Positions 2,704 to 45,802 of a stretch of 64,000 bases of DNA are shown here, one piece after another. The stretch's first letter is position 1, and each line of letters begins with the position of its first letter. The stretch spans positions 78,294 to 142,293 of the forward strand of contig CACJRN010000002.1 in the NCBI GenBank assembly GCA_902595845.1, in the 5' to 3' direction. A program made the position numbers and the translations under genes. Below the pieces are notes generated by a model. It was not told where the DNA came from and did not search any database. It was given only the letters and a program-made list of their open reading frames with translations. The DNA is from an uncultured Gammaproteobacteria bacterium. GTDB lineage: Bacteria; Pseudomonadota; Gammaproteobacteria; Steroidobacterales; UBA11654.

Positions 2704-3462
2704 TTATTCCATGTGCATTCCACCATTCACATGAATGGTTTGCCCAGTAATGTAGGAACCTGATTCTGAAGCCAAAAAAAGAGCAACTTTGGCTACATCT
2801 TCAGGAGATCCAAATCGATTCATAGGTATCTTTTCCATTAGTGCATCACTCAGTTCACTTTTAATGTCTTTTGTCATATCAGTCGTGATATATCCAGGTG
2901 CAATGTTATTGACCGTAATACCTCTTGATCCAACTTCCAATGCCAGTGATTTTGTAAAACCGAGAAGTGCAGCTTTGCTAGCACTGTAGTGAGCGTTTCC
3001 TATTGCACCTATGGATCCAACAACTGAACCAATATTGATGATTCTTCCCTTTCTATTTTTCATCATTCCTGACACAGCAGCTTTACATAAATAGAACGCT
3101 GAAGATAAGTTTGTATCTATGATCTTTTTCCAATCATCTTCTTTTATTCTCATCAAAAGACTTTCTAAGCTGATACCTGCATTATTAATGAGTATTGAGG
3201 GCAATAAGTCTCTTTCCTTTAGATCCTTGATCATTTTGTTGACATCATCAGAGTTAGAAACATCCAAGACGATACCTTCTCCTTTAGTGCTATCTTGATT
3301 GAATCTTTTTGATATTGATTCTGCTCCTTCTTTTGTAGTTGCAGTACCTATGACATATGAACCTGACTCAGCAAATAATTTTGCAATGCCAGCACCAATA
3401 CCTCTTGATGCACCCGTTATCAGCGTTATTTCATTATCAAGTCTGTTTAAATCTGTACTCAT
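2704..3462 (-). CDS. fabG: 3-oxoacyl-ACP reductase
   Basis: SDR with TGASRGIG cofactor motif, NNAG, and the YSASKAA catalytic Tyr-x3-Lys. It lies immediately upstream of acpP. I moved the start to the internal ATG at 3462 (MSTDLNRLDNEITLITGASRGIG). The 273-aa track ORF (to 3525) would overlap the upstream MFS gene. Confidence 0.9.
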   Translation of the reverse strand: MSTDLNRLDNEITLITGASRGIGAGIAKLFAESGSYVIGTATTKEGAESISKRFNQDSTKGEGIVLDVSNSDDVNKMIKDLKERDLLPSILINNAGISLESLLMRIKEDDWKKIIDTNLSSAFYLCKAAVSGMMKNRKGRIINIGSVVGSIGAIGNAHYSASKAALLGFTKSLALEVGSRGITVNNIAPGYITTDMTKDIKSELSDALMEKIPMNRFGSPEDVAKVALFLASESGSYITGQTIHVNGGMHME

Positions 3463-3484
3463 TGGTTGATTATACTTCAAAAAA

Positions 3485-4747
3485 CTATCCAGATTCAGCT
3501 TTGCTTCTCTCAATCTCATTGTCATTTACATCTAAAAACAATGAAAAAATTAGACCCAAACAAGTAATACAAGTGATGATCAAGAAAGAAGTCTGATAGT
3601 TACCAGTCATATCAAAAAATAAGGCAGTCATCACAGGGCCAAGTCCCGATCCTATTGTATCGGTGAGATTAATTAATCCCGTGATTTTTCCTAATGATCT
3701 CAAGCCAAATAAATCAGCAGATAAAAGTTGCTTTAGTGTATAGATGCCACCAAAACCTGTTCCAAAAATACCCAAGCCAAACCATATAAATAAAGCATCT
3801 TTGGTACCCGCTGCTATCGTCAGAAGAATTGAACCTGAGATAAACCCAATGAAATATGAGATTAAAACCTTTTTTCTTCCAAATCGTTCAGCAAAAAATC
3901 CACATGATATTTTTCCAAGTAAACTACCCATGAATAATATCGTTGCACTTACCGATGCAACTTGCCTGTCAAAACCACTGTCTCTTAAAAAAAGGAATGC
4001 ATTGGTGGTCATTCCCATCATTGTATAAAAAATGCACATTGCCATTAGAATCAGGAACCAGAGGTTTTTTGATTTAAGTGCTTCTGTGAATAAAAAACCA
4101 GACATGAGAACATCTTTTTGATTTGATGAAGATCTTGTCTGAATAGGCCTCTCATGAAGTAAAAAAAGTACTATGACAATCATGATCAAAGGAATAAAAG
4201 CATTGAAGTAAATGACTGATCTCCAGTCCATATAATTCAATAGCCATGCATAAAATGGAGTTAAGAAGGCCGAGCCAATACTGGATCCAGCAGCCATAAT
4301 CCCAAGCCCCAGCGCCCTATTCTTAGTAAACCACTTTGAAATTAAAATCACATTGGTTAATGAGCCAACAAATATTAAACAAGGTCCGAAGCCAAGATAT
4401 ATAAGATAGATATCAGTGAGCATTTCAACATCGACAAAAATAAAGTAGAGCAATGAGAATAATAATAAGCCAGTAAGCATAATTGGTTTTACACCAAACT
4501 TATCTGCAAAAGTACCGCTGAGAAATCCAAAACCTGCAGCTGACCAGATCATGATAGATTCTCTGAATTTTAATTCAGCCCTCGATATGGGTTCTCCAGA
4601 TGCAGTCTTGAGATTCTCGAGAAGTAAATCATCAAAAACAGTAGGCCCACCAAATGTCATCCCATTGACAACGGTCATCAACAGAAAAGAAATTGCAAGT
4701 ATGACCCAGCGGTAATTTGGGTTTTTATTTTGAATAATGGATATCAA
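3485..4747 (-). CDS. MFS transporter (OFA/MCT-like), paralog 1
   Basis: 420-aa polytopic ORF with about 12 hydrophobic segments and an LISKWF..NR.LGLG motif. It is clearly homologous along its whole length to the adjacent 424-aa ORF. Confidence 0.8.
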   Translation of the reverse strand: MISIIQNKNPNYRWVILAISFLLMTVVNGMTFGGPTVFDDLLLENLKTASGEPISRAELKFRESIMIWSAAGFGFLSGTFADKFGVKPIMLTGLLLFSLLYFIFVDVEMLTDIYLIYLGFGPCLIFVGSLTNVILISKWFTKNRALGLGIMAAGSSIGSAFLTPFYAWLLNYMDWRSVIYFNAFIPLIMIVIVLFLLHERPIQTRSSSNQKDVLMSGFLFTEALKSKNLWFLILMAMCIFYTMMGMTTNAFLFLRDSGFDRQVASVSATILFMGSLLGKISCGFFAERFGRKKVLISYFIGFISGSILLTIAAGTKDALFIWFGLGIFGTGFGGIYTLKQLLSADLFGLRSLGKITGLINLTDTIGSGLGPVMTALFFDMTGNYQTSFLIITCITCLGLIFSLFLDVNDNEIERSKAESG

Positions 4748-32133: not shown

Positions 32134-32946
32134 TTGCAACCTGATTTAATTACTTTATTCATTATTGCCTCAGCAAGTTCTTTTGCAGGGATACTAGCTG
32201 GAATGTTAGGTATTGGCGGAGGAATAGTCATTGTTCCTATGATTTACTATCTTTTGACATACTTTGGTTTTGATCAATCAATCATAATGCATGTTGCAGT
32301 TGGAACTTCTCTTTTTATAATTATTCCAACTGGATTGAGATCTGCATTTGAGCATTCAAAAAGAGGTTCCTTTAAAAAAACAATATTCAAAAAATGGTTT
32401 GCACCCATAGCTTTAGGCTCTATTTTGGGAAGTTACTTGGCAGGCATATCATCTTTCAAAGGCCTCACTTTACTTTTTGCAACACTGGCATCAGTGGTTT
32501 CATATCAAATGTTTACCAGCAGCAGAAAGGATGAAACATTAACAATTATTCAAAATCCATTGCTTAATTTCTCTCCTTTTTTTATTGGTATATTTTCATC
32601 AATGATGGGTATTGGTGGTGGAAACTTAAGTGTGCCAATAATGAGTTATATGGGAATTGAAATTAGAAAAGCGATAGGTACTTCATCTGCTCTTGGGATT
32701 GTAATAGCGGTACCTGGATCTATAGGATTCATGATCAGTGGTCAAGCTGTCGAAAACCTTCCTGATTATTCCATTGGTTATGTGAACCTTCTTTATGCAG
32801 CACTGATTATTCCTTTAACCATACTTTTTGTGCCTATTGGAGTCAGATTGGCTCATAAATTTGAGAGGAGCAGACTGCAAGCAGTATTTAGCTTATTGCT
32901 AGCAATTACTGCAACGAAAATGTTTTGGGATATTCTATCTAGTTAA
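32134..32946 (+). CDS. TauE/SafE family sulfite/anion exporter
   Basis: 270-aa ORF (TTG start) with 7-8 TM segments and duplicated G(M/I)LGIGGG / MMGIGGG motifs. Confidence 0.8.
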   Translation: MQPDLITLFIIASASSFAGILAGMLGIGGGIVIVPMIYYLLTYFGFDQSIIMHVAVGTSLFIIIPTGLRSAFEHSKRGSFKKTIFKKWFAPIALGSILGSYLAGISSFKGLTLLFATLASVVSYQMFTSSRKDETLTIIQNPLLNFSPFFIGIFSSMMGIGGGNLSVPIMSYMGIEIRKAIGTSSALGIVIAVPGSIGFMISGQAVENLPDYSIGYVNLLYAALIIPLTILFVPIGVRLAHKFERSRLQAVFSLLLAITATKMFWDILSS

Positions 32947-34649
32947 AATGTCAGGGCTTGTGATTCACCCGATGCAAGTTGGGCTTCAATAGCAGCAATT
33001 TGTGTTTGCAGTAGCGTCACTCTTTCTACTTCTTTTTCTAAGAAATTTGACCAATTCTCAACTGTTTTAACTGACGAAGGGAGCTGGCATCTGATAACCT
33101 TCTCTTCAATTTCTTTACCCATTTCAAGGAAGGCTTTTTGAGTCTCCATCTTCAGAATTAACTCATCAAGTGATAGATTTTCAGAATCAGCACATTGTTG
33201 AAGCGCGATGTCATTTCTTCGATCTGCATCAACTTTTGCCATTGCAAAGGATTCCTTTGCATCTTCATATTCAGCAGCTTCAAATTCACACATCCCTTTT
33301 GTAATATATGACTCATCTAGTCGCTTCAAAGAACCTTTTGAGATACCTGTGTTTGCTGATTCAATACAACCCGTGTAGTCGCCAATATTTGATAAAGACC
33401 TAGCCAGCCTCAAATCAAGTTCACCATCATCGGTCAGTTTAGCTGCCTCCCGAAGGGCAACGATGGCTTTGTCATCATATTTAGATAAAAACCATGCTTG
33501 CGCCAAAACCATCCAATTTTTTTCATCATCTGTATCAACTTTTCCATCATCCACAGCTTTTTGAAGAAGTTTTGCAGCCTCATAGGGTGCTTCCTTAGAA
33601 AGATAAAGTTGTGCCATCATGACAAACTCGGAACTCTTCTCTAGATATCCTTCATGATATGCTGTCTGGTAAGCAGCTATCTGTTCCTCTTCTTGCCTAT
33701 CCTGCGAATACATTGCAGAGAGTTGAACCCAGTACTCTTTTTTAGACCACTCGACTACAAGCCTTTCTAAGATTCTCTTTACTTGATCCATTTGTTCTAA
33801 TGAATAGTAACTGGCTCGAAGTAATAACCACCATTGCTCTTTTGTTGGTCCAATGGCTAGGTTTTTTGCATCTGCTTCAAGACCTTTAATTTCTTCTTCA
33901 AGCTGAACATATTTTTCATTACCTTTTCTCGTTTGCTCTAGTTGAAGTTTGAGAACTTTCTTTACCTCATTGGCAAGCGATATGTAATCAATATTATTTC
34001 GGTCATACTTCACTCTGTATTTTCCAGCTGCTGAAGTGACATTCTTTTGTAGCTGGGTAACACGATCAGCATTTCTTGATTCAGCCAAAGATATTGCTTC
34101 TTCAACTGATTCAATGGTTTTTTCAAACTGATCCATTTGGTACTGAGCTGTACCTTTAAGAATATAGAGGTCTGGTCTAGGAGTTGTTTGATTCTTGAGA
34201 ATATCATCAACAGCTGAGACGGTTCTTGGATAGTCTTCTAGTTGAAAGTAAAGTTGTGCGATTGTAGTTCTAGCTGATGATACAAGCCCCTCAGGAACCT
34301 TCTCATCTTGAAGTACTTTACGGTAGAAGTTTATAGCCCCTTGATAGTTTTCTTTAAGATACTCTACATACCCATAAAAATAATTTACTTGAGCTCTTTC
34401 GTAGTCTGTGAGTTTTTTGAATGCCATGATGTCATTTAACTCTTTAAGACCTTCTTCAATCTTTTCAGCTTCAATTAATTCTTGAGCAGCAGACAATTTC
34501 TTAGCAACTTTTTCAGTCATTGCCCCAACTTTTTTAGTTTTTCTTTGCTCTCCTTCTTGAGCAGTGACATCACTCATAGGGACGGATAAAAAAGTGGGCA
34601 GTAAAACTAAACTTAAAGAAAGAATAAAAAATAACGTGAACTTCTTCAT
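32943..34649 (-). CDS. secreted TPR-repeat protein (TtpD-like, last gene of the TonB2-type cluster)
   Basis: 568-aa ORF with a signal peptide and many A..Y/W...G-type TPR helices. It follows tonB with no gap. Confidence 0.7.
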   Translation of the reverse strand: MKKFTLFFILSLSLVLLPTFLSVPMSDVTAQEGEQRKTKKVGAMTEKVAKKLSAAQELIEAEKIEEGLKELNDIMAFKKLTDYERAQVNYFYGYVEYLKENYQGAINFYRKVLQDEKVPEGLVSSARTTIAQLYFQLEDYPRTVSAVDDILKNQTTPRPDLYILKGTAQYQMDQFEKTIESVEEAISLAESRNADRVTQLQKNVTSAAGKYRVKYDRNNIDYISLANEVKKVLKLQLEQTRKGNEKYVQLEEEIKGLEADAKNLAIGPTKEQWWLLLRASYYSLEQMDQVKRILERLVVEWSKKEYWVQLSAMYSQDRQEEEQIAAYQTAYHEGYLEKSSEFVMMAQLYLSKEAPYEAAKLLQKAVDDGKVDTDDEKNWMVLAQAWFLSKYDDKAIVALREAAKLTDDGELDLRLARSLSNIGDYTGCIESANTGISKGSLKRLDESYITKGMCEFEAAEYEDAKESFAMAKVDADRRNDIALQQCADSENLSLDELILKMETQKAFLEMGKEIEEKVIRCQLPSSVKTVENWSNFLEKEVERVTLLQTQIAAIEAQLASGESQALTF

Positions 34650-35297
34650 TTATTTCTCCAGCTCAAATGTAATTTTGTGTTGGACGCCGGGTACATCAAT
34701 TGGCGTTCCATTGATTACTCGGGGCTTATATTTAAACTTAGACGAAGCTTTTAATGATGCATTAGCAAAAAGACTGCTGGTGCATTCTACAATCTTTCCG
34801 TTTGCAGTAGTTCCGTTTCTGGTAACAACAAATTCAACGATACAATAGCCTTCTATACCTCTTGAGAGAGCTCTATTTGGATATATGGGTGCAACTTTAA
34901 CGATTGGAAGATACTCACCTTCTCCAGCATTAAACCCACCAATGCCAGCTGCTACGTCTACATTCGCATCTACAGCTCCTATGCTGACTGTATCCATGCT
35001 TGTATCGATATCATCCATTTGCTGTTCTGGTTCAGGAGGTGGCTCTTCTGGCTCCGGTGGTTTTTTTGGTTTTGCATTTTTAAGATCTAAAGATTCATCT
35101 TTTTTGATTCGAACGAAATCTACGAAACGTCCTTCATACTTTGAAGTGATTGCTCCTTCTCCAGTTGCAATAAGTATTTGCATAACCCAAAGTATCCCAA
35201 ATGTTGTGAATACAGAAAGGAAGCCAGCTGCTGCTATTCGAGTTAAAGGATCTTGAATTCCTATCGTATCTCTAATTTGTTGAATCAGTTCAGACAT
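34650..35297 (-). CDS. tonB: energy transducer TonB
   Basis: 215-aa ORF with an N-terminal TM anchor, the Pro/Glu/Lys-rich spacer KPKKPPEPEEPPPEPEQ, and a C-terminal TonB domain (YPNRALSRGIEGYCIVEFVV...). Confidence 0.85.
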   Translation of the reverse strand: MSELIQQIRDTIGIQDPLTRIAAAGFLSVFTTFGILWVMQILIATGEGAITSKYEGRFVDFVRIKKDESLDLKNAKPKKPPEPEEPPPEPEQQMDDIDTSMDTVSIGAVDANVDVAAGIGGFNAGEGEYLPIVKVAPIYPNRALSRGIEGYCIVEFVVTRNGTTANGKIVECTSSLFANASLKASSKFKYKPRVINGTPIDVPGVQHKITFELEK

Positions 35298-35313
35298 ATT
35301 TATATACGGTCAG

Positions 35314-35724
35314 TTATTCACCTTCATTTGCAGCAATAGATACGTTATAAACGCCAGCTTGTCTGGCAGAGTCCATAACTGTTACAAGTGTTTCAGTGAA
35401 AGCTTTTTTATCAGCCTGAATAATGACAGCACCTTCAGGGTTTTCTGCATGCATTCTTTCAATATTAGCTCTAACTGCTCTAGGATCTATTCTTCTTCTA
35501 TTAATCCAAATTTCATTATTTGCTCCAATTGCAACCAGAATATTGGCATTTTCTTTCTTAACTGCAGTAGGTGCATCAGGACGATTCACATCAAGACCGG
35601 ATTCCTTTACAAATGAAGCCGTTACAATAAAGAAGATCAGCATGATGAAAACAACATCAAGCATTGGCGTGAGGTTTATTTCAGCTTCTTCTTCTGGTTG
35701 TGCTTGAAATAGATTCTTTCTCAT
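35314..35724 (-). CDS. exbD: biopolymer transporter ExbD
   Basis: 136-aa ORF with the INLTPMLDVVFIMLIFFIV motif and TM segment. Confidence 0.9.
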   Translation of the reverse strand: MRKNLFQAQPEEEAEINLTPMLDVVFIMLIFFIVTASFVKESGLDVNRPDAPTAVKKENANILVAIGANNEIWINRRRIDPRAVRANIERMHAENPEGAVIIQADKKAFTETLVTVMDSARQAGVYNVSIAANEGE

Positions 35725-35743
35725 ATTTTCTTACCTTAATTAT

Positions 35744-36262
35744 TTATTCGTCTGCCGTTAGATTATCTTCTAAATCTTCGACTTCAGATGTTACCTTTTG
35801 ATTTAACAATGTCACAAAAAACACTCCAGATAAAGCGCCAACCATACCAGCCATAGTGGGGATTGTTGCTTTAGAGACACCAGAAGCCATAGATCTAGCA
35901 TTCCCAGAGCCTGAGATAGCCATTACATCGAATACTTGTATCATCCCAGTAACTGTTCCCATCAGTCCAAGTAACGGACAAAGGGCTACTAGGGTCTTGA
36001 TGATCGATAGATACTGATTCGCAGACATTGAAAATTCAGAGATCATCTGTTCTCTAATTGCTTCTGAATTCCATGACTTCTTATTTGATCGATTGCTCCA
36101 GTTTGCTTGTATCGAAGTTTTCTGTGTTATTAACCCTGATTGGAAAAATGATATTCTCTCGAGGATTAACATCCACATTAGGAATATCACAAGAGCAATT
36201 ATATTCAGGACTTGTCCTCCCATCTCTAGGAAGTCTCTGACTGCTATAATTACATCACCCAT
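35744..36262 (-). CDS. exbB: MotA/TolQ/ExbB proton channel protein
   Basis: 172-aa ORF with the LGLMGTVTGMIQVF signature. Confidence 0.88.
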   Translation of the reverse strand: MGDVIIAVRDFLEMGGQVLNIIALVIFLMWMLILERISFFQSGLITQKTSIQANWSNRSNKKSWNSEAIREQMISEFSMSANQYLSIIKTLVALCPLLGLMGTVTGMIQVFDVMAISGSGNARSMASGVSKATIPTMAGMVGALSGVFFVTLLNQKVTSEVEDLEDNLTADE

Positions 36263-36288
36263 CTTAATGATCCTCTTGGTTATTCAAA

Positions 36289-37647
36289 TTATGAGGACTT
36301 TTCAGAATGACTTGCAATGATTCCAGCTCCTTGCTCCTGAATGATCTGGCTTACTCTTCTGCTTCTTCCGCTTACAATGGTATGAAGAAGAGTAGTTGGT
36401 ATAGCAACTGTCAGACCCAGCACAGTGGTAACCAATGCTTGTGAAATACCACCAGCCATTAGTTTAGGATCACCTGTTCCATAAAGTGTAATAGCCTGGA
36501 AGGTATTGATCATTCCAGTTACTGTTCCAAGAAGTCCCATTAATGGGGCTACAACAGATATTACTTTTATGATTAATAAGCCTTTGTTCAGCTCTGGCGT
36601 TTCCTTGAATACGGCTTCAGCCATTTTCAGTTCTAGGGTATCTGTGTCGACACTCTTGTTTTCTTCGTAAACATTTAGAACTCTTCCAAGTGCATTGTCA
36701 GTGCTGATTACATCGCTATTCAATTGAGCTGTAACTTTCTTATCAACATCAATCAGGATATATAGCCTTTGTATGGCTATTCCAACACCAAATGCACCAA
36801 GTAGTAAGACGAGATAACCGACAATACCACCTTGTTGCACTCTCTCCATGAGATTGGGTCGTGCCACCAATGATGCCAGCACACCTCCAAGTGTTGGGTC
36901 AACACCAAATGAAACTTTCTCATCGCCAGCTTCAAAAACATTTGAGGTACTGCTTGTATACCTTCTACCTTCAGGCTGTCTTGGAATTTCAGTGACATTA
37001 CCAGTTTCAGGGGAGTATGTTAGATACTTTCCATCCGCGACTATGTTAAATGCACCTACTCTAACCACTTCAGTTGACTGCTTGCTTCCATTGGTATCAA
37101 TTACGTCTGTCGTGAATTTCACGACTTTTCCTGACTCCGTCATTTCTCTTTGAAGCTCAAACCAAAGTCTTTCAATCTCTTCAATAGATGGAAGCTTTGA
37201 GTTACTTCCAATTTTCTTAGCCAAATCTTCTAGAAATGGACTACGATCAGGGTATTGGACATTTGTTAATGAATTATCGAACCTTGTTCTGGCATCACCA
37301 GCAACTTGCTGCATAACACCAAAAAGTTCTTTAAGGGCACCAAGTCTTTCAGTAAGCGTATCTTGGAGAATATTTAATTCTGCTTCATTTTCTTCAAATA
37401 TTGCTTCTAATTGAGTGCTTCTATTTTCTTCAGTTATTTTTGTTGCATCAGCTTCAGATAAAAGTTTTTCTTGTTGATCCCTTTTCTGTCTAAATTCTGC
37501 TTCTCTCATCTTATTTTCAGAATTGTCGTTGATTTTTCCCTGTTCTACATTTTCGAGTAATTGATCAACAGTTATAGCTGATTGCTGAGCATAGACTGGA
37601 CTAATGATTAGACATCCTAAAACTATGAATAAATATGTTTTCTTCAT
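36289..37647 (-). CDS. large MotA/TolQ/ExbB-family protein with N-terminal periplasmic coiled-coil domain (TtpC-like)
   Basis: 452-aa ORF with a signal peptide, a coiled-coil domain of about 250 aa, and a C-terminal ExbB-type channel (MGLLGTVTGMINTF). Confidence 0.8.
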   Translation of the reverse strand: MKKTYLFIVLGCLIISPVYAQQSAITVDQLLENVEQGKINDNSENKMREAEFRQKRDQQEKLLSEADATKITEENRSTQLEAIFEENEAELNILQDTLTERLGALKELFGVMQQVAGDARTRFDNSLTNVQYPDRSPFLEDLAKKIGSNSKLPSIEEIERLWFELQREMTESGKVVKFTTDVIDTNGSKQSTEVVRVGAFNIVADGKYLTYSPETGNVTEIPRQPEGRRYTSSTSNVFEAGDEKVSFGVDPTLGGVLASLVARPNLMERVQQGGIVGYLVLLLGAFGVGIAIQRLYILIDVDKKVTAQLNSDVISTDNALGRVLNVYEENKSVDTDTLELKMAEAVFKETPELNKGLLIIKVISVVAPLMGLLGTVTGMINTFQAITLYGTGDPKLMAGGISQALVTTVLGLTVAIPTTLLHTIVSGRSRRVSQIIQEQGAGIIASHSEKSS

Positions 37648-38433
37648 TTAGAGTACCTCCGCACTATCAACTGGGATGATAACCAGATCAGGTGCAACCT
37701 GCTTCTTGGCTATACTTAGACCCATTTTAATCTCATTACGATTATCACTTGCATCTTCCCACTGCTTCGTTTTTTGATTCCAAACACCCGATACTTTTCC
37801 ATCTACAGATTGATACATAAATGCTACTCGTCCAACACGGAGGAAATCTAGTTCAAGGGTTTTGCCATCAACTTCGAGTGTATCCTTGTAAGTTTCAATG
37901 GTTTTTCCATAATCATTTTCTATTTGATAAGCCTCAGTAACCTTTCTGAACTTTTCAGCAACTGTGACATCTTCTCTTTGCATAATCTCTTTGAGTGTAT
38001 CAACTCGCTTTGTTCTCTCATCTAGCAAAAAGGGAACATCGAGCTGAACGAATTGATCGAGAGAATCAATCATTTTTGTCATCGTGGGGACAATCTGTCT
38101 GTTAATGACTGATACGAGTACAATAGATTTTTCCAAGTCGACCTTGACTCTGGCCTGATTTTCAATTTGCAGTTCTAACAGTTTGTTATAGATCTGAAGA
38201 CCATCGATTTCTTTGAGTGTTGCTCTGTATTGATCTACCAACTTATTTGTTTGATCACTTATCTTGTCAACACGCTGTTGAGATTCTTGAGCCAATAATG
38301 TCCTTTCTGTTTGAGCAGTTAAAATTTGGCTCAAAGTTTCAGCAGGGACCATCATTGGAATGGATACTAGTAAAAGACTACCTATAATCAGTTTGGTAGT
38401 AATTTTATGTTTGTTCATAAAAACATTCCCCAA
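37648..38433 (-). CDS. DUF3450-like periplasmic coiled-coil protein (TtpB-like)
   Basis: 261-aa ORF with a signal peptide and coiled-coil region. Its stop abuts the TtpC-like start. The start may be ATG 38418 (MNKHKITTK...). Confidence 0.7.
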   Translation of the reverse strand: MGNVFMNKHKITTKLIIGSLLLVSIPMMVPAETLSQILTAQTERTLLAQESQQRVDKISDQTNKLVDQYRATLKEIDGLQIYNKLLELQIENQARVKVDLEKSIVLVSVINRQIVPTMTKMIDSLDQFVQLDVPFLLDERTKRVDTLKEIMQREDVTVAEKFRKVTEAYQIENDYGKTIETYKDTLEVDGKTLELDFLRVGRVAFMYQSVDGKVSGVWNQKTKQWEDASDNRNEIKMGLSIAKKQVAPDLVIIPVDSAEVL

Positions 38434-38641
38434 ATGGTTTATTTTGAAGTCTTGGGTACACGTCCCAAGGAAGAATTGATGATAGCATAATCAAAAAATA
38501 CTCCAAAGGCTAATGACAAAAATATTACTAAAAAAAATCTTGTAATTTCATTCGATATATATTTTTGGATATATCCATATACACACTCTATTTATTGGTT
38601 ACATAGTCATAATAAATGTTCAGAAGAAACTATAATAAATG

Positions 38642-38670
38642 TTGACAAAAAGCCTGACTTCGATGAATAT
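38642..38670 (+). promoter_or_regulatory. candidate sigma70 promoter for the ilv-leu leader
   Basis: TTGACA (38642-38647), a 17-nt spacer, then GAATAT (38665-38670), 7 nt before the leader ATG region. The -10 element is weak. Confidence 0.35.
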
Positions 38671-38676
38671 TTGCGA

Positions 38677-38775
38677 ATGAAAAGTATGAATAACAATGAA
38701 GTTTTAATAACTAGTTACGGGTCAGAAGAGATTTTACTGAACCTGCTGCTAATTTGTCATCCAGGGGCAAGATAG
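38677..38775 (+). CDS. candidate ilv-leu leader peptide (32 aa)
   Basis: My reading gives MKSMNNNEVLITSYGSEEILLNLLLICHPGAR*. It has 6 Leu, 3 Ile and 1 Val codons. Seven of the eight codons in the block ILLNLLLI are Leu or Ile. It ends 29 nt before the terminator stem. Confidence 0.45.
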   Translation: MKSMNNNEVLITSYGSEEILLNLLLICHPGAR

Positions 38776-38803
38776 AGTTTTTTACTTTTAAAAGAATTTT
38801 TGA

Positions 38804-38831
38804 GGCCCCGCAAAAAAGCGGGGTTTTTTTT
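38804..38831 (+). terminator. intrinsic terminator (attenuator) immediately upstream of ilvC
   Basis: GG-CCCCGC-AAAAAA-GCGGGG-T8, strand-specific (U-run on the plus strand only). It lies 28 nt before the ilvC ATG. No plus-strand gene lies upstream for it to terminate. Confidence 0.7.
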
Positions 38832-38858
38832 ATAAATTAATAAAAAGGAGTACAACTG

Positions 38859-39875
38859 ATGCAAATTTATTATGACAGTGATGCTGATCAGAATATCGCA
38901 AAAGGGATGGAAATAGTCATCATTGGTTATGGATCGCAAGGACATGCTCATGCAAACAATCTTAAAGATTCAGGTGCCAATGTTACGGTTGCTCTTAGAA
39001 AAGAATCTGGATCATGGGCAAAAGCTGAAGCTGCTGGTTTTGATGTCAAAGAGGTAGGCGAAGCTGTACCCAATGCAGATCTTGTCATGATGCTTATTCC
39101 AGATGAGAAACAATCAGCTATGTATGAGAATCATTTAAAAGACAATATAAAAGATGGAGCAGTTCTGGCATTTGCTCATGGATTTAATATCCACTTTGAA
39201 ATGATTATTCCTAGAGATGATCTGGATGTAATTATGGTTGCGCCGAAAGGCCCAGGCCATACTGTTCGATCGCAATATGAATCAGGAGCGGGAGTACCAT
39301 GCTTATTGGCTGTGTATAGAAATGTCTCCGGAAAAGCAAAAGATGTTGGGCTTTCATATGCATCTATGATTGGTTCTGGCCGAGCTGGAATTATTGAGAC
39401 AAATTTTAAAGATGAGACTGAAACAGATCTATTTGGAGAACAAGCGGTCCTTTGTGGAGGTTTAACGTCACTTATTCAAACTGGTTATGAAGTTCTGGTA
39501 GAAAATGGTTATCCACCAGAAATGGCATATTTTGAATGTCTTCATGAAGTAAAATTAATTGTTGACCTCATTTATGAAGGTGGTCTTCAGAATATGAGAT
39601 ATAGCATTTCCAATACTGCAGAGTATGGAGATTATGTGACAGGACCAAAGATTGTGAATGAAAATACAAAGGAAACGATGCAGAAGATATTGACTGAGAT
39701 TCAGTCTGGAGAATTCGCGAAAGATTTTATGAATGACTGTAACTCTGGTGGTCAGAAAATGAGCGAATATAGAAAAAACTCCTCAGAACATTCAATCGAG
39801 TCAGTGGGCGAAGAGCTTCGTTCAATGATGCCCTGGATATCTGCCAATAAAATTGTTGATAAAGCCAAAAACTAA
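38859..39875 (+). CDS. ilvC: ketol-acid reductoisomerase (class I)
   Basis: 338-aa ORF with the [15 protein letters not shown] Rossmann motif. An SD AAGGAG lies 8 nt upstream. Confidence 0.97.
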
Positions 39876-39877
39876 TC

Positions 39878-41413
39878 ATGAAAGATTCTAGAGAAATAAT
39901 TATATTTGATACCACTTTGAGAGACGGTGAGCAGGCTCCCGGCTGCAGTATGACAATTGGTGAAAAACTAAAAATTGCACATGCACTTAAAGAATTAAAT
40001 GTTGATGTAATTGAGGCTGGTTTTGCAGCAGCATCACCAGGTGATTATGAAGCTGTGAATGCAATTGCCTCTGAGATTGATGGACCAACTATCTGCTCTC
40101 TTGCAAGATGCAATGAAAGCGATATAGAAAAAGCATATGAGGCACTTAAGGTTAATAAAAACAGAAGAATCCATGTTTTTGTCGCCACCAGTGAAATACA
40201 TCTCAAGCACAAACTAAATATGGCTAAAGATGAAGTGCTTAAAGCTGCTTATGAAGGCGTTAAAATGGCAAAGTCATTGTGTGATAATGTTGAGTTTTCA
40301 CCAGAAGATGCTTCAAGAACTGATCATGGTTTTCTCACAGAAGTGGTCAATGCTGCAATTGAAGCAGGCGCCACAACAATTAATGTTCCTGATACAGTTG
40401 GTTACACAATCCCATATGAGTTCGGCGAACTGTTTAAACATTTGATTGATAATTGTGACAATGCAGAGAATGTTGTTTTTAGTGTTCACTGTCACGATGA
40501 CCTCGGCCTTTCAGTAGCCAATAGTTTGGCTGCGGTTGAATCCGGAGCGAGACAAATCGAATGTACCATTAATGGTATAGGAGAGAGAGCTGGAAATACC
40601 TCACTTGAAGAAGTGTGCATGGCAATTAGAACAAGGGAAGAGTATTTTGATTTTAAAACATCAATAGATTCAACAAAATTATATCCCACGAGTAGATTGG
40701 TTTCCTCTATCACGGGGATGCATGTTCCTAGAAACAAAGCAATTGTTGGCGATAACGCATTTGCTCATGAAGCTGGTATCCATCAACATGGAATGCTTAG
40801 AGATTCTTCAACATATGAAATCATGAAGCCTCAAGATGTTGGTATTGCTAGATCAAATCTCGTTCTTGGAAAACACAGCGGCAGACATGCTTTTTTGGAC
40901 AGAATCAACGATTTGGGGTTTAAGCTCGAAAAGGATGAGATTGATCCAGCTTTTCGAGAATTCAAGAAATTGGCTGACAAAAAGAAGGAGATCTTTGATA
41001 CAGACATAGAAGCAATAGTTTTAAATGCGGATATTGCAAATATGAGTCGATGGTCGCTGGAAGATCTTGAAACAAACTCTGGCTCCTCATGGGGTTCCAC
41101 AGCATCATTAAAATTAGTAGATTCAGGTGAAAATATCATTGAAAGGGATAATAAGGAGAATCCAGCCAGTGGGCCGATTGAGGCTGTTTTTAATATCATC
41201 AGTGATATTACGGGATATCAGCTTGAATTGACTAACTTTGAAATTCACAGCGTCAGTGTTGGCGATGATGCTCAAGGTGAAGTCACTGTCACAGTCAGCT
41301 ATGATGGACAGAATTATAGAGGGCATGGCATCAGTACTGATATCATTGAGTCTGGCGCTTTGGCTTATCTTGAGGTCATTAACCGAATAGAAAGAAATCA
41401 AGCAAAACATTAG
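39878..41413 (+). CDS. leuA: 2-isopropylmalate synthase
   Basis: 511-aa ORF with IFDTTLRDGEQ, a HCHDDLG(L) metal site, and the C-terminal LeuA dimerisation/regulatory domain. Confidence 0.97.
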   Translation: MKDSREIIIFDTTLRDGEQAPGCSMTIGEKLKIAHALKELNVDVIEAGFAAASPGDYEAVNAIASEIDGPTICSLARCNESDIEKAYEALKVNKNRRIHVFVATSEIHLKHKLNMAKDEVLKAAYEGVKMAKSLCDNVEFSPEDASRTDHGFLTEVVNAAIEAGATTINVPDTVGYTIPYEFGELFKHLIDNCDNAENVVFSVHCHDDLGLSVANSLAAVESGARQIECTINGIGERAGNTSLEEVCMAIRTREEYFDFKTSIDSTKLYPTSRLVSSITGMHVPRNKAIVGDNAFAHEAGIHQHGMLRDSSTYEIMKPQDVGIARSNLVLGKHSGRHAFLDRINDLGFKLEKDEIDPAFREFKKLADKKKEIFDTDIEAIVLNADIANMSRWSLEDLETNSGSSWGSTASLKLVDSGENIIERDNKENPASGPIEAVFNIISDITGYQLELTNFEIHSVSVGDDAQGEVTVTVSYDGQNYRGHGISTDIIESGALAYLEVINRIERNQAKH

Positions 41414-41421
41414 GAGAAATT

Positions 41422-42351
41422 ATGCCACTCAAGCCAACAAAAAATATTTGGTTTAATAATGAATTAGTGCCTTGGGAGTCTGCTCAAGTTCATGTTCTGA
41501 GCTATGCATTGCATTATGGCTCTGCTGTTTTTGAAGGTATAAGAGCCTACTCTACAAATGACGGCTCAAAAATCTTCAGATTAAATGAACACATAAAAAG
41601 ACTCTTTAATTCAGCAAAGATCTATCGAATGAATATTGCTTATAGCGAAAATGAAATCATTGAAGCTTGCAGGAAAATTGTTTCTGTGAATGATTTGCAT
41701 AGCGGTGCTTATATAAGACCCATTGCATTCAGGGGATATAATGACCTTGGTCTCCATGCATCGATGGATGATGACATAGAAGTGGTTGTGGCTGCTTGGG
41801 AATGGGGTACCTACTTAGGCGCAGATGCTTTAGAGAATGGTGTAGATGTTTGTATTTCCTCTTGGAATAGGAATGCACCCAATACAATACCAGTTATGGC
41901 AAAGGCATCTGGGAATTACTTATCAGGGACATTGGTTGCAATAGAAGCAAAAGAAAATGGATACGATGAAGGCATCTGTCTTGATTCAGACGGATTTGTC
42001 AGTGAAGGCGCAGGTGAGAATATCTTTATGGTGAAAAATGGGTCTCTCATAACCCCTCCTCTCAGTTCATCAATTCTAGATGGAATCACAAGAGATTCCG
42101 TTATGAAAATTGCAAAAGATTTGAATATCGACTGCATTGAGAGAAGGATCACAAGGGAAGAGCTTTATCTTGCCGATGAGTTATTTTTCACTGGAACTGC
42201 TGCAGAAATTACCCCAATAAGAAGTGTTGATAGAATCGAGATTGGCGAAGGCAAAAGAGGTCCAATTACAGAGAGTATTCAGAATGTATTTTTTGGTTTA
42301 TTCACTGGTGAATCGGATGATAAATGGGATTGGTTGACTTCCGTTGAGTAA
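41422..42351 (+). CDS. ilvE: branched-chain amino acid aminotransferase
   Basis: 309-aa ORF with typical fold-type IV aminotransferase sequence ([34 protein letters not shown]). Confidence 0.95.
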
Positions 42352-43753
42352 ATCTCCAAAAACTCTATTTGAAAAGATCTGGCAGGATCATTTGGTTATT
42401 CAAGAGACCAAAGAGACACCTGCGATACTTTATATTGATCTTCATCTTATTCATGAAGTCACAACACCTCAGGCATTTCAGTCTTTGAGAGACAAAGGAT
42501 TGTCAGTCAGAGATCCAAAAAAAGTTTTAGCAACTATGGATCATTCCACTCCAACTCTTCCTGTCAATAGCATAGCTGACCTCGATATCGTTGCCGAAAA
42601 AGGACCTGCTGATCAAATAAGAGACATGATCAAGAATTGTGAAGATTTTGGTATTGAGCTACATGGATTTGGCTCGGATAAGAGAGGTATTGTTCATGTG
42701 ATTGGTCCTGAGCTTGGCGCCACACAGCCGGGAAAAACAATTGTATGTGGGGATAGCCATACCAGTACGCATGGCGCATTTGGAGCGCTAGCATTCGGTA
42801 TAGGTACCACAGAGGTTGGACATGTTTTGGCATCTCAGTGTCTTCTTCAGAGAAAACCCAAGACATTTGCTGTGAATATGTCAGGAGCACTCAAATCTGG
42901 AGTGTCTGCAAAAGATATCATTCTAAAAATTATTCAAGAAGTTGGAGTCGATGGTGGTGTTGGACATATTATAGAGTATAGAGGCCAAACAGCAGGCCTT
43001 CTTTCTTTAGAGGAAAGGATGACCATTTGTAATATGAGCATTGAGGCTGGCGCAAGAGCCGGGATGTTTGCACCTGATGATAAAACATTTGACTACTTGA
43101 TAGATAAACCAATGTCGCCAAAAGGATTAGATTGGGATGAAGCAATACAGAGATGGTCTAGATTGGTTACTGATGAGAATGCTGAATTTGATAAAGAAGT
43201 AACCATTGATGTTGATCGATTGTCACCGATGGTCACCTACGGCACAAACCCAGGAATGGCAATGCAAATTGATGATGTCGTACCAGCATCAAATGGAGAT
43301 CTTGGTCATAAACAGTCACTGAATTATATGCAGATTGAAGCCGACAAACCCATTATAGGAAAAGAGATTGATGTAGTTTTTATAGGAAGTTGCACAAACT
43401 CAAGAATATCTGACCTTCATGATGCAGCCGAAATTCTCAAGGGCAGAAAAGTTTCAAATGGGGTTAGAGCATTGGTTGTACCAGGTTCTCAGGCAGTAAA
43501 GAAAGAAGCAGAAAGTTTAGGGCTGGATAAAATATTCGAATCAGCAGGAGCAGAATGGCGTGAATCTGGATGCTCGATGTGCCTTGGAATGAATGGTGAT
43601 ACAGTTGGAAATGGGCAATTGGCAGTGAGTACGAGTAACCGAAATTTTGAGGGTCGACAAGGTAAAGGGGCTAGAACAATACTAGCAAGTCCAAAAACTG
43701 CTGCTGCATCAGCGATTGCAGGATCTGTAGATGACCCAAGGAAATATAGTTAA
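42344..43753 (+). CDS. leuC: 3-isopropylmalate dehydratase large subunit
   Basis: 469-aa ORF (TTG start) with the aconitase-family Fe-S ligand blocks VCGDSHT, GSCTNSR and GCSMCLGMN. Confidence 0.97.
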
Positions 43754-43757
43754 CGAT

Positions 43758-44333
43758 ATGGAAAAGATTATTGAATTTAGTTCTAAAACTGTTGTTTTGT
43801 CAGTGAATGACATTGATACAGATCAAATTATCCCTGCTAGATTTTTAACAGTTACAACGAAAGACGGACTTGGCGATGGTTTATTTGCAGATTGGCGATT
43901 TGATGAAGACGGAAATAAAGTTGAACAATTTCCATTGAACCAGGATAAATCAGATGGGTGCACTATTTTAATTTCTGGCAGTAATTTTGGCTGTGGATCG
44001 TCACGTGAGCACGCTCCTTGGGCATTGGTTGATTATGGATTTAAGGCAATTTTATCAACCTCATTTGCAGATATTTTTAGAAACAATGCACTAAAGAATG
44101 GCCTATTGCCTCTTACAGTGTCAGAAGAGTTTCATGCGATGTTGACAGAGAATGAAGGGATTGAAGTCACTGTCAGTCTTGAAAAAATGATGATTCATGC
44201 CTCTAACGGGATGAAAGAAGCTTTCGATCTTGAGCCTTTTTCGAGATATTGCTTAATGAATGGTATTGATCAACTGGGATTCATCATGAATCACGAAGAA
44301 CAAATTAATGCATTTGAGAATAAAGGACAGTAA
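43758..44333 (+). CDS. leuD: 3-isopropylmalate dehydratase small subunit
   Basis: It has the GSNFGCGSSREHA motif. I set the start to ATG 43758 (MEKIIEF...), 4 nt after the leuC stop. The track ORF begins at 43731, inside leuC. Confidence 0.95.
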   Translation: MEKIIEFSSKTVVLSVNDIDTDQIIPARFLTVTTKDGLGDGLFADWRFDEDGNKVEQFPLNQDKSDGCTILISGSNFGCGSSREHAPWALVDYGFKAILSTSFADIFRNNALKNGLLPLTVSEEFHAMLTENEGIEVTVSLEKMMIHASNGMKEAFDLEPFSRYCLMNGIDQLGFIMNHEEQINAFENKGQ

Positions 44334-45389
44334 ATGAAAGCAGAAATCACCGTATTGGCTGGAGATGGTATCGGACCTGAGATCACTGAGCATGCATTAA
44401 ATATTCTCAATGCAATCGAAAAGAAATATGGACATGAATTCACATTACATGATGCACTGTTTGGCGGAATTGCAATTGATGAAACAGGCGATCCATATCC
44501 ACTAGAAACAAGAGAACTTTGTAAAAAATCTGATGCAGTCCTTTTGGGCGCAGTTGGCGGTCCGAAATGGAGTGATCCCAAAGCAAAAACAAGACCTGAA
44601 AAGGGACTACTTGATATGCGATCAGACCTAGGCGTCTATGCTAACTTAAGGCAAATAAAAACTTACCCTCAACTCATCGATAATTCACCGATAGAAAATG
44701 CCAAACTAAAAGACATTGATATTTTATTTGTAAGAGAATTAATAGGTGGTATTTATTTCGGTGAAAAAGAGAAAACTGACGACTACGCTAAAGATGTGTG
44801 TGAATATTCAGCATCTGAAATAGAGCGAATCGTAAAAGTTGCAGCAGATTTGTCAATGAAAAGAAAAAACAAGCTTACATCTGTTGATAAGGCCAACGTA
44901 ATGGCTACATCTCAACTCTGGAGATCTGTAACAATCGCTATGATTGAAAAAGAATATCCTGAGATAGAAATTGAACACCTTCTTGTTGATGCTGCTACTA
45001 TGCACCTCCTCTCACGTCCAGCTGATTTTGATGTGATTGTTGCTGAGAATTTATTTGGCGATATTCTGACGGATGAAGCATCTATGCTGACTGGATCTAT
45101 TGGTATGATTCCATCTGCGTCGCTCGGAGATAATAACTTTGGTGTATATGAACCTATTCATGGCTCAGCGCCTGATATTCAAGGCAAAGGACTCGCAAAT
45201 CCTAGTGGCATGATTCTTTCAGTGGCGATGATGTTAAAACATTCACTCAATCTGATTGAAGAATCAAATGATATCGAGAATGCCGTTGAAGAGGTTCTCA
45301 GTGACGGGATATTTACAGCTGATTTGTCATCTGAAGATCATGTTTCAACAGATGAGATGGGTAATGCCATTCTCTCAAAAATAGTTTAA
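44334..45389 (+). CDS. leuB: 3-isopropylmalate dehydrogenase
   Basis: 351-aa ORF with ITVLAGDGIGPEI, NLFGDILTDEASMLTGSIGM and EPIHGSAPDI motifs. Confidence 0.97.
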   Translation: MKAEITVLAGDGIGPEITEHALNILNAIEKKYGHEFTLHDALFGGIAIDETGDPYPLETRELCKKSDAVLLGAVGGPKWSDPKAKTRPEKGLLDMRSDLGVYANLRQIKTYPQLIDNSPIENAKLKDIDILFVRELIGGIYFGEKEKTDDYAKDVCEYSASEIERIVKVAADLSMKRKNKLTSVDKANVMATSQLWRSVTIAMIEKEYPEIEIEHLLVDAATMHLLSRPADFDVIVAENLFGDILTDEASMLTGSIGMIPSASLGDNNFGVYEPIHGSAPDIQGKGLANPSGMILSVAMMLKHSLNLIEESNDIENAVEEVLSDGIFTADLSSEDHVSTDEMGNAILSKIV

Positions 45390-45443
45390 CTTCTTTTTAA
45401 TTTCTTCTTGTATTCAATCTTTTTATGCCTATAATGTCACGCT

Positions 45444-45461
45444 GTACTAACACATTAGTAC
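45444..45461. promoter_or_regulatory. perfect palindrome (candidate operator) at the his-operon promoter
   Basis: GTACTAA-CACA-TTAGTAC starts 8 nt downstream of a consensus TATAAT (45430-45435). A possible -35 TTGTAT lies at 45408-45413. The palindrome ends 21 nt upstream of the yerC-like ATG. Confidence 0.4.
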
Positions 45462-45481
45462 ACTAGAACATAGGTATAAAG

Positions 45482-45802
45482 ATGAAAATAGAAAGAGTTT
45501 TAACAAAAAAAGAAGAAAAGCTCGCCGAAGAGCGATTCTATGAAGCAATAATGTCATTAAATGATGTGGATGAGTATCGATCATTCTTCAATGATATTTT
45601 TACACCAGCTGAATTTGAATCCATTAAAGACAGATGGAGTGTTGCTGAGCTTCTGGACAAGGGATACACATATAGAGAAATAAAGACAATGACTGGAGTA
45701 AGCCTGACAACTATCGGTAGAGTTGCAAGATTTCTGTTTGATGGAGCAAATGGTTACAAAGTGGCGCTGGAGAGAATAAAAACAAATGAAAGAAAGAATT
45801 AA
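45482..45802 (+). CDS. TrpR-like YerC/YecD-family DNA-binding protein
   Basis: 106-aa ORF. The pattern F...T..E......R..VA..L..G.TYREI...TG.S..TI.RV.R.L is as in Bacillus YerC. The 3' end overlaps hisG by 17 nt. Confidence 0.8.
   Translation: MKIERVLTKKEEKLAEERFYEAIMSLNDVDEYRSFFNDIFTPAEFESIKDRWSVAELLDKGYTYREIKTMTGVSLTTIGRVARFLFDGANGYKVALERIKTNERKN

Follow-up and report, generated by a model that had tools for sequence, protein, structure and literature searches.

The window analysed here, a stretch of 64,000 nt from an uncultured gammaproteobacterium, has a G+C content of 38% and carries on its forward strand six genes of branched-chain amino acid biosynthesis: ilvC, encoding ketol-acid reductoisomerase (38859–39875), leuA (2-isopropylmalate synthase, 39878–41413), ilvE (branched-chain amino-acid transaminase, 41422–42351), leuC (42344–43753), leuD (43731–44333) and leuB (44334–45389). 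All six were assigned by NCBIfam above curated cut-offs, which agrees with the gene identities and the order given in the original prediction. The profile match of LeuD begins at residue 10, and the true start of leuD is probably a few codons downstream of 43731. Because the genes abut or overlap, they make up one operon, of which leuB is the last gene and four of the six genes are Leu-specific. No ilvB, ilvN, ilvD or ilvA was found in the operon or within the 64 kb, and no ilvI or ilvH in the window or in syntenic loci. The IlvC protein shares 90–91% identity with proteins from MAGs and SAGs of uncultured marine gammaproteobacteria, and 72–78% with those of many SAR86-cluster genomes.

The nearest upstream gene (37648–38433) encodes a DUF3450 protein on the minus strand and is the first gene of a TonB/ExbBD cluster (32943–38433, minus strand; DUF3450, ExbB of 452 aa, ExbB of 172 aa, ExbD, TonB and a TPR protein). 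Several clades keep both this cluster and the downstream hisR-hisG genes in synteny with the ilv-leu leader. Between leuB and a YerC/TrpR-family gene (45482–45802) that precedes hisG, the interval 45408–45462 holds a separate promoter (TTGTAT-16-TATAAT) and an operator. The latter is a perfect palindrome, TGTACTAA-CACA-TTAGTACA (45443–45462), and agrees with the consensus TGTAnTArnnnnyTnTTACA for proteobacterial HisR operators (PMC9413887). An autoregulated HisR repressor, which is a familiar type of system, thus probably controls the his operon, and such protein-based his control would directly adjoin RNA-based control of the ilv-leu genes.

The region ahead of ilvC contains, on the forward strand and as originally predicted, a promoter-like element, a short Leu/Ile-rich open reading frame and a strong intrinsic terminator. 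A –35 hexamer TTGACA (38642–38647) and a –10 hexamer GAATAT (38665–38670), separated by a 17-nt spacer, match the consensus at 10 of 12 positions in a consensus scan. Near this element lies a 12-nt direct repeat, ATAATAAATGTT, at 38609–38620 and 38632–38643, with copies 23 nt apart, the second of which runs two bases into the –35 hexamer; locus L003 shares the proximal copy, more distant clades do not, and the repeat may serve as an UP-element-like A/T tract or as a protein site, or may have arisen by chance. The reading frame (38677–38775) comprises 32 codons followed by a TAG stop (38773–38775) and translates as MKSMNNNEVLITSYGSEEILLNLLLICHPGAR. It has 10 Leu, Ile or Val codons, and seven of the eight codons in the block ILLNLLLI (ATT TTA CTG AAC CTG CTG CTA ATT, 38731–38754), which we propose as a ribosome stall site, specify Leu or Ile.

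Nine nucleotides before the stop codon, the frame contains GGGGC (38764–38768), hereafter segment 2, the 5′ strand of a candidate antiterminator. An A/U-rich inner hairpin that may close the antiterminator loop (38774–38800) is tentatively predicted: it appears in 13/13 homologues, and its sequence is not conserved. Segment 3 (38802–38811) is the 5′ arm of the terminator and includes GCCCC (38805–38809), the alternative partner of segment 2. Segment 4 (38818–38831) consists of the terminator 3′ arm (GCGGGG and the first Ts) and a T8 tract (38824–38831). The consensus scan recovers the terminator as GAGGCCCCGC-AAAAAA-GCGGGGTTTT (38802–38827), with a stem of 10 pairs, six of them G-C, formed by GAGGCCCCGC and GCGGGGUUUU around an A6 loop. 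Its hairpin energy is –16.3 kcal/mol, and in our own scan of all 64 kb only about five terminators were of similar strength. Since the upstream gene is on the opposite strand, the terminator cannot be ending a preceding transcript, which bears out the argument originally made for it. The 27 nt between the terminator and ilvC have as their sole content a Shine-Dalgarno sequence, AAGGAG (38845–38850), 8 nt before the ATG, and a GGAG-type motif occupies this place in all homologues. We rejected a possible internal promoter in this gap (TATAAA at 38832–38837, with a poor –35 and unconserved in other clades), and the 51-leader alignment described below and the consensus scan revealed no conserved promoter-like sequence between terminator and ilvC, a gap too short for a further promoter. 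With just a Shine-Dalgarno sequence in the 26–34 nt that separate the two across the family, the operon would be expressible only through read-through.

The original prediction proposed conservation in relatives as a check of the small frame and its Leu run. We retrieved 80 genome loci via IlvC alone. In most SAR86 genomes ilvC directly follows ilvH (ilvI-ilvH-ilvC) and such a leader is absent; in all SAR86-like loci where ilvC is the first gene (13/13), the leader unit, with its small frame and Leu run, stands ahead of it. Further members, two more clades among them, came from a metagenome scan with a pattern in which only GGGGY, RCCCCGY and the terminator were fixed. Being selected by this pattern, the metagenome members are no independent evidence for conservation of these elements; they are independent evidence for the promoter, the ATG, the Leu run, the frame, the spacings and the Y:R complementarity. 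After removal of duplicates, the alignment holds 51 distinct leaders from about six clades of SAR86-like marine gammaproteobacteria, with one leader copy per locus (regex and alignment recovery).

Across these 51 leaders, the –35 element has an invariant TGACAA, the –10 element follows nAnnAT (alignment positions A25 and A28 invariant, T29 and T30 nearly so; the conserved bases are the A at position 2 and the T at position 6 of the hexamer), and the spacer is always 17 nt. The leader ATG is invariant and lies 6–8 nt after the –10 element. The frame varies in length from 27 to 34 codons and is kept through indels of 3, 12 and 21 nt. A Leu-dominated run is present in all clades, as ILLNLLLI, LILGLLILLE, ALLILLEI, IILLGLLLLVL, LGALLLLDL or LEGLLLLDL. 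The GGG-GYN codons stand 9–12 nt before the stop, and the stop codon stands 25–30 nt before the terminator arm. The gene order, with ilvE between leuA and leuC as originally noted, was described there as unusual; we found ilvC-leuA-ilvE-leuC-leuD-leuB to be identical in every clade with enough sequence, even where LeuD is 55–60% and IlvC 50–53% identical to the window proteins. The architecture as a whole is conserved across clades whose operon proteins are just 50–80% identical.

Two observations concern the evolution of these loci. In two clades (L093, L125, L190 and others), IlvC is 50–53% identical to the window protein while LeuA is 74–82% identical, which suggests, from the sequences, that ilvC was swapped for a divergent copy in one lineage and the leader left undisturbed. 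In SAR86 genomes with ilvC after ilvIH (e.g. HIMB1674, L022), the terminator motif is absent upstream of ilvI. In HIMB1674 the 95-nt region before ilvI has a TTGACT promoter-like site, small hairpins and an 11-codon frame, MLNLLRFGVTF (around 5690–5760 of L022), and lacks a canonical terminator. This may represent another kind of Leu-sensing leader, possibly a translational one, or have arisen by chance.

The folding analysis agrees with the original expectation of mutually exclusive terminator and antiterminator helices, both of which use GCCCC (38805–38809). A single-sequence fold does not discriminate here (whole-leader z-score –1.30, unremarkable), whereas comparison between sequences does. 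In the 13 genomes the terminator is paired in 98.5% of alignment cells and shows only one-sided G-U/A-U changes. We then folded, with the terminator 3′ arm excluded, the stretch that a ribosome halted on the last Leu codon would leave free behind it. GGGG pairs with CCCC in 13/13 of these folds, with antiterminator energies of –8 to –22 kcal/mol versus –14 to –16 kcal/mol for the terminators; in the window the two are close (–15.4 versus –16.3 kcal/mol). For 49 of the 51 nascent leaders, which lack the 3′ arm, the minimum-energy fold includes the antiterminator, and RNAalifold finds it to be their sole conserved helix. Of the full-length leaders, the seven whose folds were inspected all favour the terminator.

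The proposed pairing of GGGGC (38764–38768) with GCCCC holds across the family. Its core is 5 bp long in the window and 6–9 bp in other clades. Four core pairs are invariant and hence uninformative for covariation. The informative column pair, 132:176, is C:G in 42 sequences (GGGGC:GCCCC) and U:A in the other nine (GGGGU:ACCCC), with no C·A mismatch and no U·G wobble among the 51, even for members found with the search pattern, which left both bases free and allowed all four combinations. The U:A state had at least two origins, one in the group of L003 and L004 within the clade of the window and one in L018, L182 and L192 as against L032 and L034. Of the flanking antiterminator pairs, one reads G:C in 15 sequences and A:U in 5, and a second switches between U:G and C:G. 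In register, 87.7% of antiterminator cells are paired, versus 28–52% when the partner is slid by 1–3 columns. The observed covariation score was reached by no shuffle, a statistic that overstates significance because the sequences are phylogenetically related; the case for covariation therefore rests on the at least two independent compensatory switches and the complete lack of mismatches.

The enteric model invoked in the original prediction applies here in its leader peptide, terminator and antiterminator. RNAalifold of the reading-frame region revealed no conserved 1:2 (anti-antiterminator or pause) hairpin upstream of segment 2. Short CTAG-type hairpins seen by eye in some clades were rejected as candidates, being unshared and out of register between clades. 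The 1:2 hairpin belongs to the enteric four-segment model and is not required by the mechanism; with none conserved, an untranslated leader would default to read-through.

Selection on the leader was assessed from codon columns that vary within clades. In the eight-codon Leu run, 12 such columns are synonymous-only versus 10 non-synonymous, as compared with 25 versus 64 in the rest of the peptide (Fisher test on the synonymous share, P = 0.024). The N-terminal half of the peptide changes almost freely within clades, and the same holds for nearly everything outside the Leu run and the RNA-pairing codons. By this comparison it is the codons that are conserved, not the peptide, as predicted for a stall site and against a functional micropeptide. 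Of all leader residues, 23% are Leu, 10% Ile and 1.7% Val. The Leu/Ile-rich run originally described is thus present, and its signal can be refined: as read from composition, Leu dominates it, Ile comes second and Val hardly occurs. CTG and CTA, which the genes of the window use least often among the Leu codons (9% and 10–12%, respectively), supply four of the five Leu codons in the run of the window; together they account for 19–21% of Leu codons in these genes versus 53% in the leaders of the family.

The leader frame has no Shine-Dalgarno sequence. Its ATG follows the –10 hexamer by 6 nt in the window, so that the start expected 7 nt downstream of this hexamer, as placed by its conserved A and T, coincides with the A of the ATG; elsewhere the two lie within 2 nt. 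Because the spacing from –10 element to ATG is conserved and a Shine-Dalgarno sequence is lacking, the mRNA of the leader peptide is probably leaderless, and its translation would depend on leaderless or near-leaderless initiation. This mode of initiation is uncommon in gammaproteobacteria. Precedents in other taxa are trpL of Sinorhizobium meliloti, whose transcript begins with the trpL ATG (PMC7298713), and the leaderless polycysteine attenuator frames of mycobacteria (bioRxiv 10.1101/834739).

Overall, we consider it highly probable, on comparative sequence evidence, that this leader is a ribosome-mediated, mainly leucine-responsive transcription attenuator of the ilvC-leuA-ilvE-leuCDB operon, and the attenuation of the operon proposed in the original prediction is backed by the same evidence. 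We infer the transcription start, the stalling and the physiological response in the model that follows. Transcription would begin at the TTGACA-17-nAnnAT promoter, probably at the leader ATG or within 2 nt of it, and a ribosome would translate the 32-codon leader as RNA polymerase advances. With an ample supply of charged tRNA-Leu (and, less importantly, tRNA-Ile), the ribosome would reach the TAG stop and cover GGGGC 9 nt upstream; GAGGCCCCGC would then pair with GCGGGGUUUU, and transcription would stop at the terminator, 27 nt before ilvC. Under Leu shortage, the ribosome would stall at the rare CUG/CUA codons of ILLNLLLI, 13–27 nt upstream of GGGGC, leaving this segment free to pair with GCCCC, so that no terminator would form and the operon would be transcribed.

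The spacing of the elements fits these two outcomes. A ribosome footprint extends about 12–15 nt to each side of the P site. In 13/13 sequences, the last Leu codon precedes GGGG by 12–18 nt and GGGG precedes the stop by 9–12 nt. When a Leu codon of the run occupies the A site, the ribosome shields about 12 nt on its downstream side and would therefore stop short of GGGGC, so that Leu shortage would give antitermination. A ribosome at the stop codon would cover GGGGC and not the terminator arm 25–30 nt downstream, so that Leu sufficiency would give termination.

Three other explanations were weighed against this attenuator. The promoter-like match, the frame and the terminator might have come together by chance in A+T-rich intergenic DNA, and promoter-like matches are indeed equally frequent in shuffled sequence (4 found in the region versus 4.7 expected). 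The observed Leu/Ile density is another matter, since an ATG-initiated frame with at least seven Leu/Ile codons in eight arose in just 4 of 2000 dinucleotide shuffles of the intergenic region. With the architecture recurring in 51 distinct sequences across clades, and with covariation, chance co-occurrence is, by comparative data, already refuted, and we assign it a negligible probability. A switch of this form could also be set by uncharged tRNA (T-box-like), by a metabolite (riboswitch) or by an RNA-binding protein. The alternative helices are real, and with the leader ATG lacking a Shine-Dalgarno sequence, leader translation is only predicted. Against such a switch, neither the window nor six homologous loci match a T-box, a riboswitch or any other Rfam family at the gathering threshold, no T-box or riboswitch appeared for the leader region at E-values up to 10, and the leader has no conserved structure beyond the two alternative helices. 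The kept frame and start, the synonymously varying Leu run and the fixed distance from stop to segment 2 are instead the signature of translation sensing, and we regard a switch that bypasses the ribosome as improbable.

Promoter, frame and terminator could instead make up an independent gene for a micropeptide or a trans-acting small RNA, with ilv-leu expressed by constitutive leak-through. Consistent with this, the frame is called as a gene in other clades, where it is listed as 'hypothetical protein', and attenuator RNAs and peptides have trans functions in S. meliloti (PMC7298713). However, a peptide nearly free to vary outside the Leu run and the RNA-pairing codons is hard to square with a function of its own, the covariation of the 3′ end of the frame with the terminator arm would be left unexplained, and the unit always stands directly before ilvC, which has no separate promoter. 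As a membrane micropeptide in particular, the product was rejected: its hydrophobic run is just 8–10 residues long with charged flanks, too short for a helix, and its sequence is too variable. An independent small gene is, in our view, very improbable.

Leader-peptide attenuation of branched-chain amino-acid operons is a textbook mechanism, and the proposed attenuator can be set beside several known systems. The E. coli leuL leader uses rare Leu codons. The family described here resembles E. coli and Salmonella leuL-leuABCD (RF00512) in its short leader peptide with a run of Leu codons, rare ones among them, in an intrinsic terminator just ahead of the first biosynthetic gene, in an antiterminator that uses the terminator 5′ arm, and in an antiterminator strand placed where a ribosome at the stop codon would hide it. 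It differs from leuL in having no sequence or structure homology to it, in the presence of ilvC and ilvE in the operon, in an ATG without a Shine-Dalgarno sequence 6–8 nt after the –10 element, in the lack of a conserved 1:2 hairpin, and in the Ile codons mixed into the Leu run. E. coli ilvL (of ilvGMEDA) and ivbL (of ilvBN) are branched-chain leader attenuators that sense more than one amino acid. The present leader would likewise do so, but ilvL and ivbL are Val-rich too, whereas Val makes up just 1.7% here; the genes controlled are different, and there is no homology.

By analogy, the function is closest to that of the Leu-rich attenuator peptides of the fused ilv-leu operons of Firmicutes, namely ilvDBNC-leuABCD-ilvA of Staphylococcus aureus (PMC5794164) and its counterpart in Listeria (PMC5864092). 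In both settings one Leu-rich leader peptide serves a combined ilv and leu operon, but phylum, gene order and gene content differ, and no CodY layer is known here. With S. meliloti trpL and the mycobacterial polycysteine frames the leader shares a reading frame at the 5′ end of the transcript, which is a prediction here; those systems sense other amino acids in other taxa. Proteobacterial attenuators of this kind have been predicted by comparative genomics, on evidence of the type used here (Vitreschak et al. 2004, FEMS Microbiol Lett 234:357, as reported in PMC1262725). Complementary triples common to antiterminator and terminator are conserved over large distances (PMC1262725). GGGGY, RCCCCGY and GCGGGG form such a conserved triple in the present leaders. 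To our knowledge, SAR86-like genomes did not exist at the time of the 2004 predictions.

When the leader was searched against Rfam at E-values up to 10, it gave sub-threshold matches to Trp_leader (23.9 bits versus a threshold of 41) and Phe_leader (22.1 versus 55), both carried by the terminator hairpin, and not even a weak match to Leu_leader (RF00512). The leader peptide of the window is absent from a collection of 15 billion proteins; its homologues in other clades are present solely as 'hypothetical' or 'uncharacterized' proteins. Full-text literature on SAR86 and 'leader peptide' yielded no description of this element. The kind of attenuator is thus well known and the conceptual gain small, while the SAR86-like leader family is new to Rfam and to annotation.

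The metagenome scan also returned leaders of a different type. At about 3390–3600 (minus strand) of L147, and also in L179, a Phe/Tyr-rich leader (…NYYFFFFFYPNLGGVIF) with the same GGGG/CCCC style of terminator lies upstream of a fructose-6-phosphate aldolase/transaldolase-type gene, two unassigned frames and aroB. From its sequence this looks like aromatic-amino-acid attenuation of a pentose-phosphate/shikimate operon. Another aromatic-rich leader, MKNLVANTSFYYFFFYFWGSKLGFLCM, was found in L150.

Reading the leaderless start, the three RNA segments and a possible role in trans jointly, we offer only tentatively the idea of a minimal attenuator design of streamlined marine bacteria. If true, there would be no anti-antiterminator and the untranslated state would be 'on'; termination would strictly need a ribosome parked at the leader stop codon; and the abundant terminated transcript of about 150 nt, or the peptide, could act in trans, as do the attenuator transcript and leader peptide rnTrpL/peTrpL of S. 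meliloti (PMC7298713).

The 51-sequence curated alignment describes an RNA family missing from Rfam, and with it the 'hypothetical protein' annotations of the leader peptides would be corrected. SAR86-like bacteria rank among the most abundant surface-ocean heterotrophs and are largely uncultured, with small genomes and few regulators. Six of their branched-chain amino-acid genes would, on this evidence, be controlled by a conserved 190-nt leader and no regulatory protein, and the ratio of terminated to read-through transcripts would offer a testable metatranscriptome marker of leucine limitation.
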